Made by a program: the position numbers and the translations under genes. Positions 28,895 to 32,000 of a DNA stretch of 32,000 nt are shown piece by piece (positions within the stretch are counted from its first letter, which is position 1; the number at the start of each line of letters is the position of its first letter). The notes beneath the pieces were generated by a model, which saw nothing but the letters and a program-made list of their open reading frames with translations, did no database searches and was not told the origin of the DNA. This DNA is from Candidatus Saccharimonadota bacterium. GTDB taxonomy: Bacteria; Patescibacteriota; Microgenomatia; UBA1406; GWC2-37-13. The stretch lies in the NCBI GenBank assembly GCA_001790095.1, contig MGBH01000001.1, forward strand, positions 540,001-572,000, in the 5' to 3' direction.

Positions 28895-30172
28895 ATGCGT
28901 ATTAAAAAAGTTGCTGTCATCGGGCTTGGTTATGTCGGGCTCCCGACTTATGTAGCTCTTTTGAAAGCAAAAACATATGAGGTCGTTGGATACACACGGT
29001 CGCAAAAAAAAGTAGATGCTATCAATAAGGGCCAATCACCGATCGAAGATGAGGATGTAATATCTTACTTAAAAAGTAATAAAGTTAAAGCAACCAATAA
29101 ACAGCAAGACTTAAAAGGATGTGATGTCTTTATCATCTGTGTACCTACCCCCGTAAAAGACGACTATGTGCCAGATTATGAACCGGTCATATCCGCAACT
29201 CAACTGGTTGCTCCCTATATAAAAAAGGGGTCACATTATGTACTTGAGTCAACAGTCAATCCAGGAACTTGCGAGGAAATAATTCTGCCCATCCTTGAAA
29301 AAGAAACAGGACTCAAAGCTGGATCTGACTTTAATATCGCACATTGTCCCGAACGCATCAACCCAGGAGACCAAAAGTGGAATATCTACAATATCAATCG
29401 TAATATTGGGTCGCTTTCAAAAAGCCAAAATAAAGAAATCGCTTCGTTTTATCGAACCTTTATAACTAAAGGGCAGGTCAACGAAGTTAACTCACTTAAG
29501 GTTGCCGAAGCTACTAAAATAATTGAAAACACCTTCCGGGATATAAACATAGCTTACGTAAATGAGCTTGCCCAGTCATTTGATATCATGGGCATTGACC
29601 TCCATGAGACATTGAAAGCTTCGTCAAACAAACAGTTTGCGTTTATGCCGCACTACCCCGGTTGTGGAGTAGGGGGTCATTGCATAGCGGTTGACCCATA
29701 TTATTTGATCAGGCGCGCGTCACTTGACGGATTTAATCATCAGTTTTTAAAATATGCCCGCGAGATCAATAATGGCATGCCCGGTTATACCATACAAAGA
29801 TTGCTCCTTGGTCTAAATGATGTCGGACTTAGTCTCAAAGGTACCAAAGTTGCGCTTCTGGGCTTAAGTTATAAACCAGATATTGGAGATATCCGTGAAA
29901 GCCCAAGTCTTATTATTGAAAAAGAACTTAAAAAGCTTGGGGCACAGATAATAGTCTATGATCCTTATGTAAAACGTGCAGAAAAAGATTTGGCAAAAGC
30001 TATCAAGAATGCAAAAGCAATAGTAGTTGCAACAGCACATAAGGAAATTAAAATGGGTCTTGAGAGTTTATTAAAAAAATCAAAAGTTAAGGTGGTCATT
30101 GACGGACGAAACTGTTTAGACAAAGAAAAAATAAAAAAAATGGGGATAGTTTATAAAGGAATAGGAAGATAA
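28895..30172 (+). CDS. NDP-sugar dehydrogenase (UDP-GlcNAc / UDP-ManNAc 6-dehydrogenase family, WbpA/WecC-like)
   Basis: 425-aa ORF with the N-terminal Rossmann motif VAVIGLGYVGLP, a catalytic-Cys region (GCGVGGHCIAVDPYY), and a C-terminal UDP-binding domain (LGLSYKPDIGDIRESP). Confidence 0.85.
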   Translation: MRIKKVAVIGLGYVGLPTYVALLKAKTYEVVGYTRSQKKVDAINKGQSPIEDEDVISYLKSNKVKATNKQQDLKGCDVFIICVPTPVKDDYVPDYEPVISATQLVAPYIKKGSHYVLESTVNPGTCEEIILPILEKETGLKAGSDFNIAHCPERINPGDQKWNIYNINRNIGSLSKSQNKEIASFYRTFITKGQVNEVNSLKVAEATKIIENTFRDINIAYVNELAQSFDIMGIDLHETLKASSNKQFAFMPHYPGCGVGGHCIAVDPYYLIRRASLDGFNHQFLKYAREINNGMPGYTIQRLLLGLNDVGLSLKGTKVALLGLSYKPDIGDIRESPSLIIEKELKKLGAQIIVYDPYVKRAEKDLAKAIKNAKAIVVATAHKEIKMGLESLLKKSKVKVVIDGRNCLDKEKIKKMGIVYKGIGR

Positions 30173-30182
30173 AAATAAAAGT

Positions 30183-30260
30183 TGTCCGTCATTCCCGCGA
30201 AAGCGGGAATCCAGACATAAATTACAAATTTTATAGATCCCGATTTTCATCGGGATGACA
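30183..30260. repeat. Pair of head-to-head hairpin repeat units (TGTC..hairpin..spacer..hairpin..GACA)
   Basis: Unit A is gtcATTCCCGCgaaaGCGGGAATcc (30188-30212). Unit B, inverted, is gATCCCGATtttcATCGGGATgaca (30236-30260). Confidence 0.8.
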
Positions 30261-30263
30261 TAA

Positions 30264-31316
30264 ATGAAAAAACTTGGCATCGGAGTCATAGGTTTAGGAA
30301 GAATATTCCTTCGTCATTATGATGACAGTATCAAACAACTGCCAGAGATAGAACTCGTTGCAGTGTGTGATAATAAAAAAAGTGTACTTAATAAATACAG
30401 GGATGAACTATCTAAAGATAAGACACCCCCACCATCATTTTATACCGACTATCAGCATCTTATTGATGATAAACGTGTTGATGTGGTCACGATAGCTACA
30501 CCTAATGGCCTACATAATATCATGGGTATGGCTGTTGCAGTGGCTCAAAAACACTGCATTATGGAAAAACCTATTTCGCAAAATTTTAAAGATGCGCAAA
30601 GACTGGTCAATGCTTTCAAAAAATCAAAAGGCAAACTTTTTCCTGTTCTACAGGTCAGATATAATCCAGCAGTACAAACACTACGAAGCGCCATAAAAAA
30701 AGGGCTACTGGGTAAGATACTTACTGCTTCAGTTATCATCCGATGGACCCGCCCCCAGGAATATTTTGATGAAAGCGACTGGAAAGGTACTCTCAAGATG
30801 GACGGAGGCACGCTTCTCACACAGGCGATCCATTATGTTGACATAATGCAGTATGTGCTTGGACCGGGTAAATCGGTATTTGGCAAACTGGACAGAGTAG
30901 CGCATAAGATCGAAGCAGAAGATATCGCAAACGCCATCATAGATCTCAAAACAGGTACCAGGGTCAATCTTGAGTTCACCGTCTGCACTTATCCGCACAA
31001 TCTTGAATGTTCTCTTACCGTGCTTGGAGAAAAAGGAACGGTTAAAATAGGAGGAACCGCAATGAATAAATGTGAACTTTGGGAAGTGAAAGACACTCCA
31101 ATGCCATATATTCCCGAAGGGTTGATTCCAAACGTATATGCCGGAGGAATGTATGTGGGATCATGTCCCAACCATAAATCAATCTATGAAAATATGATCA
31201 ATAATCTTGTGTACAAAAAAGAGTCGTTTCTTAAAGCCGAAGATGCACTTGAGTCTTTAAGAATTATAGACGGAATCAAAAAATCAAGCGAGATGAAAAA
31301 AGAAGTAATATTATAA
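30264..31316 (+). CDS. Gfo/Idh/MocA family NAD-dependent oxidoreductase (WbpB-like by context)
   Basis: 350-aa ORF with an N-terminal Rossmann fold (LGIGVIGLGRI...) and the EKP motif (CIMEKPISQNFKDAQRLV). It lies between a sugar dehydrogenase and a WbpD-like acetyltransferase. Confidence 0.8.
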   Translation: MKKLGIGVIGLGRIFLRHYDDSIKQLPEIELVAVCDNKKSVLNKYRDELSKDKTPPPSFYTDYQHLIDDKRVDVVTIATPNGLHNIMGMAVAVAQKHCIMEKPISQNFKDAQRLVNAFKKSKGKLFPVLQVRYNPAVQTLRSAIKKGLLGKILTASVIIRWTRPQEYFDESDWKGTLKMDGGTLLTQAIHYVDIMQYVLGPGKSVFGKLDRVAHKIEAEDIANAIIDLKTGTRVNLEFTVCTYPHNLECSLTVLGEKGTVKIGGTAMNKCELWEVKDTPMPYIPEGLIPNVYAGGMYVGSCPNHKSIYENMINNLVYKKESFLKAEDALESLRIIDGIKKSSEMKKEVIL

Positions 31317-31320
31317 TACT

Positions 31321-31382
31321 ATGTCATCCTGAACTTGTTTCAGGATCAATATGGAAGATGCTGAAATAAATTCAGCATGACA
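31321..31382. repeat. Second pair of head-to-head hairpin repeat units
   Basis: Unit C is atgtcATCCTGAActtgtTTCAGGATc (31321-31347). Unit D, inverted, is gATGCTGAAataaaTTCAGCATgaca (31357-31382). Confidence 0.8.
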
Positions 31383-31392
31383 ATATAAATAT

Positions 31393-31899
31393 ATGAAAAA
31401 ATATTATTGCCATGAATCATCGATAGTTGATAAAAACGTAACCATAGGTGACGAAACTAAGATCTGGCATTTCTCCCATGTATCAAGTGGCGCCAAAATC
31501 GGTAAATCCTGCTCCCTTGGTCAGAACGTATTTATTGGTAACAACGTTACAATAGGAGACAATGTAAAGATCCAAAACAATGTATCAGTCTATGAAGGAG
31601 TGACTCTTGAGAACGATGTATTCTGCGGACCATCGTGTGTATTTACCAATGTGAGACAACCCAGAAGTGAGTTCCCGGTACATAAAAAGTATGACAAAAC
31701 ACTCATTAAAAAAGGAGTGACTATAGGAGCCAATGTCACAATAGTTTGCGGAGTGACTATCGGCAAATACGCATTTATCGGAGCCGGCTCTGTCGTCACC
31801 AAAGATGTTCCCGATTATGCCTTAGTCTATGGCAACCCCGCAAGAGTAAAAGGAAAAGTGGATGAGAAAGGAAAGAAAATTAACACTATGTCATCCTGA
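31393..31899 (+). CDS. wbpD: Hexapeptide-repeat (LbH) N-acetyltransferase, WbpD-like (UDP-2-acetamido-3-amino-2,3-dideoxy-glucuronate N-acetyltransferase family)
   Basis: 168-aa [59 protein letters not shown]...[39 protein letters not shown] closely follows the WbpD-type sequence as I recall it. The last 3 codons and the stop lie inside a repeat unit. Confidence 0.8.
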
Positions 31900-31933
31900 A
31901 CAATAAATGTCATCCCGAACTTGTTTCGGGATC
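31885..31933. repeat. Truncated hairpin unit followed by a complete unit, immediately upstream of the GIY-YIG gene
   Basis: actatgtcatcctgaac (31885-31901) is identical to 31318-31334 but lacks the 3' half of the hairpin. It is followed by atgtcATCCCGAActtgtTTCGGGATc (31907-31933). Confidence 0.8.
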
Positions 31934-31938
31934 TATGT

Positions 31939-32000
31939 ATGACTTATTTCGTATACATTTTGACTAACATAACGAATAGCACTCTCTATATTGGAGTTAC
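31939..32000 (+). CDS. GIY-YIG nuclease family protein (UPF0213-like), N-terminal 20 codons only; runs off the window
   Basis: ATG 31939: MTYFVYILTNITNSTLYIGVT. This is the characteristic YVYIL.....LYIGVT (GIY...YIG) start of small GIY-YIG domain proteins. It is too short to appear in the ORF track. Confidence 0.65.
   Translation, partial: MTYFVYILTNITNSTLYIGV

Follow-up and report, generated by a model that had tools for sequence, protein, structure and literature searches.

A putative Ssn-family nuclease gene bracketed by candidate cognate hairpin repeats in a wbp-type operon of a Roizmanbacteria genome

A GIY-YIG nuclease gene and hairpin units in a wbp-type operon

The window analyzed here is a stretch of 32,000 nucleotides (nt) of contig MGBH01000001.1 (positions 540,001 to 572,000), near the end of which wbpA-, wbpB- and wbpD-like genes form one co-oriented sugar operon, followed by the start of a small GIY-YIG nuclease gene (designated ssn below) and accompanied by short hairpin units that carry the motif TGTCAT. 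The nuclease open reading frame (ORF) is cut by the window end, and its extension was read on contig MGBF01000001.1 (1.217 Mb), which belongs to the metagenome-assembled genome (MAG) of a Candidatus Roizmanbacteria member of the candidate phyla radiation (CPR; GCA_001790045.1). Window and extension together cover 41.9 kb of a 1.2 Mb genome. The genes and hairpin units of the locus are as follows, with positions in the extension prefixed L003 and with repeat types named after published families that are introduced below.

28895..30172, + strand: wbpA-like nucleotide-sugar dehydrogenase (TIGR03026, E 3.4e-114), first gene of the hairpin-carrying operon segment
30187..30214, + strand: NTS / CGTC-1 type unit CGTCATTCCCGCGAAAGCGGGAATCCAG, 8-bp stem and 4-nt loop, left half of dimer 1 in the wbpA/wbpB spacer
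30236..30260, - strand: unit TGTCATCCCGATGAAAATCGGGATC (as read on the - strand), right half of dimer 1
30264..31316, + strand: wbpB/wlbA-like Gfo/Idh/MocA oxidoreductase (top PDB matches 3q2k, E 2e-58, and 3q2i, E 3e-53)
31322..31347, + strand: CC-type unit TGTCATCCTGAACTTGTTTCAGGATC, 8-bp stem and 5-nt loop, left half of dimer 2 in the wbpB/wbpD spacer
31357..31382, - strand: GC-type unit TGTCATGCTGAATTTATTTCAGCATC (as read on the - strand), right half of dimer 2
31393..31899, + strand: wbpD/wlbB-like N-acetyltransferase (top PDB match 3mqg, E 3e-60)
31889..31901, + strand: truncated CC-type unit TGTCATCCTGAAC, missing in a sister species (locus L125)
31908..31933, + strand: complete CC-type unit TGTCATCCCGAACTTGTTTCGGGATC, left flank of ssn and left half of dimer 3
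31939..32000, + strand: ssn gene (GIY-YIG nuclease), ATG at 31939, opening MTYFVYILTNITNSTLYIGV, cut by the window end
L003 10829-10854, - strand: GC-type unit GATGCTGAAATAAATTCAGCATGACA, beginning directly after the ssn TAA, right half of dimer 3
L003 10860-10923: extra dimer (dimer 4), directly past dimer 3
L003 10932-12053: wbpE-like DegT aminotransferase (WbpE 3nyu, E 4e-90), next gene after ssn

The ssn gene thus sits between the wbpD-like and wbpE-like genes, exactly inside a pair formed by one + unit and one - unit. An earlier interpretation of the window (the sequence-only reading) had placed the nuclease gene 5 nt past a complete hairpin with a truncated unit before it, and this arrangement can be read directly: the 5 nt (TATGT), counted from the closing C of the unit at 31908-31933, separate that unit from the ATG. 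The DegT/WbpE-type aminotransferase that had been predicted downstream of the nuclease was indeed found on the extended contig. The truncated unit supplies the TGA stop and the last codons of the wbpD-like ORF. Among the structural matches of the neighboring genes, we take 3mqg to be WlbB, and 3q2k and 3q2i to be WlbA. The full ssn ORF encodes 93 amino acids (aa; L003 10547-10828, equal to window 31939-32220). An alternative TTG start within the left hairpin (L003 10529-10546, window 31921-31938) gives a 99-aa version, P0001, in some gene calls; alignment with the homologs and with SsnA, a characterised nuclease described below, supports the ATG at 31939 as the probable start.

All units share a common plan, which reads GTC, AT, N6, loop, N6', AT and C. 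With a strict unit defined as GTC, a perfect 8-bp stem starting with AT, a loop of 4-5 nt and then C, we counted 8 strict units in the 41.9 kb, all within about 2.1 kb, versus 0 in 300 dinucleotide shuffles, which indicates that the hairpin units are not due to chance. These 8 units make up 4 convergent dimers, with dimers 1 and 2 in the first two spacers of the operon and dimer 3 bracketing ssn; the occurrence of the same hairpin family in both upstream spacers, as already seen from the window alone, amounts to two inverted units in each (30187-30260 and 31322-31382). Dimers 2, 3 and 4 each combine a CC-type left unit (GTCATCC[T/C]GAA...) with a GC-type right unit (GTCATGCTGAA...). The unit at 30187-30214 is identical to the Neisseria NTS consensus (28/28), also fits the published SRM search string, and is the sole NTS/SRM match in the 41.9 kb (mean of 0.065 in a Markov simulation). 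Dimer 1 is predicted to fold at -18.1 kcal/mol (z -6.3), and an alternative fold of dimer 2 is one long hairpin (-15.1 kcal/mol, z -5.8) that resembles a REPIN, a hairpin-forming doublet of repetitive extragenic palindromic (REP) sequences. One other GTCAT hairpin exists in the window, at 542-562; it has a 7-bp stem and no trailing C, and looks like a chance occurrence. At the right unit of dimer 4 (L003 10899-10919), a T8 tract follows on the - strand and gives an intrinsic-terminator-like score, and no - strand gene converges there.

The nuclease and its repeats as a candidate Ssn system

Two bodies of published work bear on this locus. The Ssn family (CDD cd10448) consists of proteins of about 94 aa with a single GIY-YIG domain, and its characterised SsnA members come from Neisseria meningitidis, N. 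elongata, N. wadsworthii and Wolbachia pipientis (Chenal et al., 2025; PMC11893778). These nucleases bind hairpin repeats, called NTS in Neisseria (CGTCATTCCCGCGMAVGCGGGAATCYRG) and SRM in general, solely as single-stranded DNA (ssDNA) and cut a few nucleotides upstream, with no RNA binding by the characterised homologs; cleavage by SsnA needs Y6, Y17 and E64, which were mutated in that study, the C after the palindrome is reported as the most critical base for binding, and cutting depends critically on the three bases that precede the palindrome. An SRM lies within 5 kb of 71% of ssn homologs and on both sides in 42%, and in Neisseria transformation SsnA trims or restricts repeat-bearing ssDNA. 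The authors likened the NTS-ssnA-NTS arrangement to an insertion sequence and to REPs with their REP-associated tyrosine transposases (RAYTs); their survey drew on RefSeq reference genomes, and the text makes no mention of CPR or Roizmanbacteria (Chenal et al., 2025; PMC11893778). In addition, the CGTC-1 and CGTC-2 families of “CGTC-tagged REPs”, which are moderately to highly repeated in their genomes, have a tag that is sometimes TGTC, stems of 8 or 9 bp starting with AT and loops of 4 or 5 nt, occur mostly as inverted dimers that are often heterodimers, and include dRS3 of Neisseria and RPE-4 and RPE-6 of Rickettsia; the study that described them reported no dedicated enzyme, and CPR genomes were outside its scope (Di Nocera et al., 2013; PMC3733652). 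Beyond these papers, we found no literature on Ssn mobility or on CGTC repeats associated with GIY-YIG nucleases.

The 93-aa protein fits the Ssn family in size, domain content and active-site residues. The Pfam GIY-YIG domain (PF01541) spans residues 3-77 (E 3.7e-19), and there is no second domain. With the 94-aa N. gonorrhoeae ortholog of the characterised SsnA (from NZ_CP119140.1 in PLSDB) as the reference, 41/89 residues (46%) are identical in a gap-free alignment (pairwise E 4e-29, tblastn E 4e-19), which lies within the published homology criterion (E < 1e-10 over >75% of the length). Y6, Y17 and E64 occur at the same numbering as in SsnA, and in an alignment of 29 homologs, including the gonococcal protein, Y17 and E64 are invariant and Y6 is conserved in at least 90%. 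The nuclease matched none of the NCBIfam models, and its matches in the PDB were distant UPF0213 structures only (1zg2, E 9e-7). The flanks agree with the family as well, with a + unit 5 nt before the ATG and a - unit right after the stop. We conclude, with a probability of roughly 0.85, that the ORF encodes an Ssn-family site-specific ssDNA nuclease, that the TGTCAT hairpins are its cognate repeats (SRM/NTS, or “CGTC-tagged REPs”), and that the whole block was inserted in this lineage and has been inherited vertically. The sequence-only reading had supposed that the nuclease recognizes or propagates the hairpins, in a relationship similar to that of REPs and RAYTs; the first half of this proposal gains support from homology to the characterised Ssn family, and propagation is unproven, with ssn at the orthologous site in the sister species. 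The nuclease/hairpin link guessed there is already published, and the locus is a fresh example of it in a CPR genome.

The reference accession itself is a 2.17 Mb N. gonorrhoeae chromosome labelled “plasmid” in PLSDB (L213, NZ_CP119140.1 1880775-1884041). Its ssnA region packs 16 NTS units into 3.3 kb, and spurious ORFs run across these units (SFPRRRESR, VIPAQAGIQ and DSRFRGNDE).

The association between nuclease and repeat was also observed in other genomes. Units occur within about 100 nt at about 11 of 16 independent ssn loci, and six show a + unit upstream and a - unit downstream of the gene, a bracket present in this genome and in L125, L132, L217, L218 and L223. Across the 16 loci, protein subtype tracks hairpin subtype with one exception: units with a 4-nt loop (ATTCCCGC) accompany the proteins that share at least 64% identity with gonococcal SsnA, and units with a 5-nt loop (...CTGAA) flank those nearer to the Roizmanbacteria Ssn. 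Moreover, the C-terminal tails DPETSSG, DAETSSA and EINSG of many annotated homologs (P0013, P0036, P0037, P0050, P0066 and P0092) are translations of the right-hand unit (GATCCTGAAACAAGTTCAGGATGAC or GATGCTGAAACAAGTTCAGCATGAC), so the 3' end of ssn and the right-hand unit are physically coupled. CPR genomes are the source of most source-named homologs among the best 120, and the other CPR ssn genes each occupy one fixed context unrelated to the others (trmD; Ham1/serS; PIN-MazE/integrase). In the last of these (L234 2501-5084, from a groundwater member of Patescibacteria), the ssn homolog lies next to a PIN/MazE toxin-antitoxin pair and a tyrosine integrase, and the region may be a mobile island. 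A search of 2.9 million viral contigs with the single protein found no relative of ssn, and a search with an alignment found 11 only; a phage origin of ssn was dropped on this count.

The units themselves are spread much more widely. A degenerate 25-mer of the local units, scanned against genome contigs, returned at least 120 loci, examined as 8-kb stretches; those listed are all from other organisms and come from phyla as diverse as Sphingomonadales, Bacteroidota, Treponema, Melainabacteria, several CPR groups and others. Adjacent units among the listed loci were convergent (+/-) in 58 cases, divergent (-/+) in 19 and tandem in 7, and GC/CC heterodimers accounted for 39 of the 58 convergent pairs. 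An Ignavibacterium MAG (L050 1489-1677, five units) and a Treponema MAG (L057 58-217, four units) contain arrays of strictly alternating orientation with a spacing of about 40 nt, similar to bacterial interspersed mosaic elements. One 25-nt unit (L030 2672-2696, JAHIPG010000372.1) is located on a 3.8 kb contig binned as a MAG of Nanoarchaeota (DPANN), which could reflect either a true archaeal occurrence or a mis-binned contig.

Several observations weigh against assigning this locus to the Ssn system. The identity of 46% falls below a stricter published cut-off (at least 60% to the N. meningitidis SsnA), and seven of the eight units miss the published SRM search string, owing to their AT-richer stems and, in six of them, a loop of 5 nt; the seventh has a loop of 4 nt. 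The dimer in spacer 1 (30187-30260) belongs to the 4-nt-loop NTS / CGTC-1 type and differs from the 5-nt-loop units beside the local ssn, which could be explained by cross-recognition, by a second Ssn elsewhere in the genome, or by a relic. Within the 41.9 kb, the units are confined to the surroundings of ssn, so a large “colonisation” of the genome by these repeats is not demonstrated. Among the listed hairpin-bearing 8-kb stretches, 6/120 contain an ssn-like gene, a proportion that would be expected if units outnumber genes, and 4 of the 11 ssn-related loci on viral contigs have no unit within 2.5 kb.

Residence and turnover at the wbpD/wbpE junction

The history of the insertion was approached through related operons. 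A metagenome scan with WbpD yielded 80 loci with WbpD relatives at 58-71% identity. At the wbpD/wbpE junction, ssn or canonical units were found in 0 of these 80 loci, and wbpE directly follows wbpD in about 23 of them; therefore, the block is a lineage-specific insertion, and the earlier claim that the nuclease gene interrupts a wbp operon holds. The boundaries of this insertion, which were to be drawn by comparison with syntenic loci lacking ssn, are not definable at the nucleotide level with the nearest relatives at this identity in WbpD. Five of the 80 loci (L136, L143, L154, L157 and L163) have a different small gene at the wbpD/wbpE gap (for example, L154 3492-4065), annotated as “four helix bundle protein” (TIGR02436, E ~1e-33), a family also found in intervening sequences of 23S rRNA, and at L202 the gap contains a 132-aa ORF with no NCBIfam match. 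It seems that the wbpD/wbpE junction tolerates small inserted genes in several lineages.

In a sister species (L125), ssn occupies precisely this junction, and each spacer contains one dimer. Between the two species, Ssn is 79% identical by BLASTP (76% by global alignment) and the wbp proteins are 81-85% identical; synonymous sites are saturated, and the ratio of nonsynonymous to synonymous divergence (dN/dS) of ssn is 0.12. As the gene is shared at this site despite saturated synonymous divergence and at such a low dN/dS, it is an old resident under purifying selection. Tags and stems of the units are kept between the two species, loops alone differ, and the left flank of ssn is identical at 26/26 positions. 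Against this stable background, our genome differs from L125 in several respects. Immediately behind the resident right-hand unit it has 68 additional nt, made up of GTGAAC and a complete dimer; a partial unit of 19 nt is inserted on the 5' side of the left unit; a 1-nt deletion removes the ancestral TAA of wbpD so that wbpD reads into the unit fragment; and the dimer in spacer 1 is of a different type, namely NTS. Hairpin dimers have thus been gained or exchanged between the two species. For this species, each of the 24 contigs read shows the nuclease gene itself in the same arrangement and position, with no second copy within the 41.9 kb and no clear target-site duplication at the junctions compared with L125; similarly, the homolog P0083 occurs in a single gene context across 24 contigs, and P0086 does so across 8. 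Consequently, ssn behaves as a long-resident selected gene and not as a recently moving element.

These features have to be weighed against other explanations. If unit-ssn-unit were an active autonomous transposon, that is, a minimal insertion sequence with a GIY-YIG transposase whose gene-less dimers are derivatives now mobilised in the manner of miniature inverted-repeat transposable elements, one could account for the tagged inverted ends like those of an insertion sequence, for the empty dimers with the same two end types, for the lineage-specific insertion into a conserved operon, and for dimer gain and dimer type replacement between sister species. It would also suit the solitary ssn homologs between unrelated housekeeping genes in different CPR genomes, as well as the extra dimer and the truncated unit, whose junctions lie at most 6 nt 5' of a GTCAT tag and thus presumably near the position at which SsnA homologs cut. 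The residence of ssn described above argues otherwise: the orthologous site in a species with saturated synonymous divergence, the purifying selection, the one position in all 24 contigs, the fixed contexts of P0083 and P0086, the single copy in the 41.9 kb and the lack of a clear target-site duplication are all at odds with current mobility. None of the best 120 homologs lies on a contig as long as the 1.2 Mb one of this genome. In addition, GIY-YIG nucleases hydrolyse DNA, and we know of no case in which they perform strand transfer. We therefore regard an active transposon as improbable.

The hairpins might alternatively be RNA or DNA structures selected by the host within the operon, such as mRNA stabilisers, attenuators or terminators, with the nuclease gene as an unrelated passenger. 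All units do lie in intergenic spacers of one co-oriented operon, form stable folds and are conserved between the sister species, and an effect of REPs on mRNA stability is documented (Di Nocera et al., 2013; PMC3733652). On the coding strand, however, no T-tract follows the units, and simple terminators were rejected after a terminator and promoter scan, in which terminator-like sites were not enriched and the units coincided with no + strand terminator. A role confined to the operon also sits poorly with a 25-mer whose asymmetric GTCAT tag and trailing C are conserved over many phyla, with ssn genes bracketed by units in unrelated contexts, with the failure of the characterised homologs to bind RNA, and with the 80 relatives that have the same operon without such a hairpin, so that this explanation deserves very little credence. 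Least credible of all, to the point of being negligible, is a free-standing homing endonuclease similar to I-TevI or Seg proteins that cut an empty wbpD/wbpE junction and was copied in by repair, a possibility that the sequence-only reading had raised in its comparison with homing enzymes and their target sites. The GIY-YIG fold and the insertion of a small gene between two conserved genes would suit it, but the protein of 93 aa has no DNA-binding domain besides the nuclease domain, no intron is present, the context is a chromosomal operon, and relatives on viral contigs are few (11 among 2.9 million). Homologs occur in many contexts and always with the same hairpins, which points to the repeat, and not a host target, as the conserved partner and the recognised site.

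Possible mechanism and relation to known systems

Under the preferred assignment to the Ssn family, a mechanism can be proposed by analogy with SsnA from Neisseria and Wolbachia. The nuclease would bind a flanking or nearby unit only when the DNA is single-stranded and folded. It would recognise this unit by its GTCAT tag, its 8-bp stem beginning with AT and the C that follows the stem, and, by means of Mg2+ and residues Y6, Y17 and E64, would cleave on the same strand, a few nucleotides to the 5' side of the tag. The ssDNA could be provided by the lagging-strand template, by transforming DNA or by transcription bubbles. Binding and cutting 5' of the tag are the most likely activities of this protein, given those of its homologs. 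Downstream of cutting, the nuclease may take part in the upkeep and slow spread of dimers, as in RAYT/REPIN systems, which is consistent with the architecture, with dimer gain and exchange, and with the two novel junctions within 6 nt 5' of a tag; alternatively, it may restrict or trim repeat-carrying ssDNA, as in Neisseria transformation. The anatomy and homology of the locus, its insertion, the selection on ssn and the turnover of dimers from one species to the other are shown here, and the biochemistry in this organism is inferred, as is whether the nuclease makes and spreads dimers or trims ssDNA. Recognition of the hairpins by Ssn is supported by the sequence comparisons, and mobility is unproven.

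A bolder proposal is that the locus represents a real mobile system, in which a GIY-YIG nuclease that hydrolyses ssDNA, and forms no covalent intermediate, would initiate the copying of REPIN-like dimers beside existing units. One conceivable route is a nick in exposed ssDNA 5' of the tag, after which template switching or repair by the host would be recruited. A complete dimer was gained 6 nt from a resident unit, a partial unit was duplicated 6 nt from another, and dimer types were exchanged at an orthologous spacer; these changes are compatible with such a process and do not prove it, and we consider it rather unlikely. If true, it would constitute a transposition or homing chemistry apart from all known classes of prokaryotic transposases.

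Whatever the downstream role, the pairing of Ssn with hairpins, previously characterised in Proteobacteria only, is shown here to be present and widespread in CPR/Patescibacteria. The nuclease-hairpin link is already known; what is new is its occurrence in a phylum-level group absent from that work, together with a repeat variant that escapes the motif, as the common units with a 5-nt loop slip past the published search string. For genome annotation, the pairing accounts for a class of small “hypothetical” ORFs and for odd C-terminal tails that arise from read-through into a hairpin. Furthermore, with one gene in one dimer, gene-less dimers nearby and a sister species at hand, the locus is a compact one in which to test repeat generation versus cutting only.

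Compared with known systems, the locus is closest to Ssn/NTS. It shares with the latter a protein that is about 94 aa long, has GIY-YIG as its single domain and contains Y6, Y17 and E64, at 46% gap-free identity to the gonococcal ortholog, as well as tagged hairpin repeats on both flanks of the gene, one local unit equal to the NTS consensus, and repeats clustered around particular genes. It differs in the CPR host, in the setting within a polysaccharide operon, in the very few units seen rather than hundreds, and in the ssn-flanking units, whose loop is 5 nt long, whose stem is richer in AT (A[T/C][C/G]C[T/C]GAA) and which are missed by the SRM string; the characterised SsnA is known from biochemistry, whereas the system here is known from its sequence. 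The repeats also match the CGTC-tagged REPs, as all 8 units fit the (C/T)GTC tag, the 8-bp stem starting with AT, the loop of 4 or 5 nt and the arrangement in inverted dimers or heterodimers, and the short tail is present as well (CCA in the local NTS-type unit); here, in distinction, the repeats bracket a nuclease gene. With RAYT/REPIN systems, the locus has an analogous organization, in that a vertically inherited single-copy nuclease gene has flanks of tagged hairpins that would be recognised as ssDNA, and gene-less inverted dimers lie in nearby spacers. The enzymes are different, however, since RAYTs are HUH tyrosine enzymes (HUH-Y1, as in IS200/IS605) that form a covalent intermediate, whereas a GIY-YIG nuclease is hydrolytic, and the tag of REPs is GTAG rather than CGTC or TGTC, so the locus is not a member of the RAYT family. 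By this analogy, a domesticated RAYT with its REPINs is a closer comparison for the locus than an active insertion sequence.

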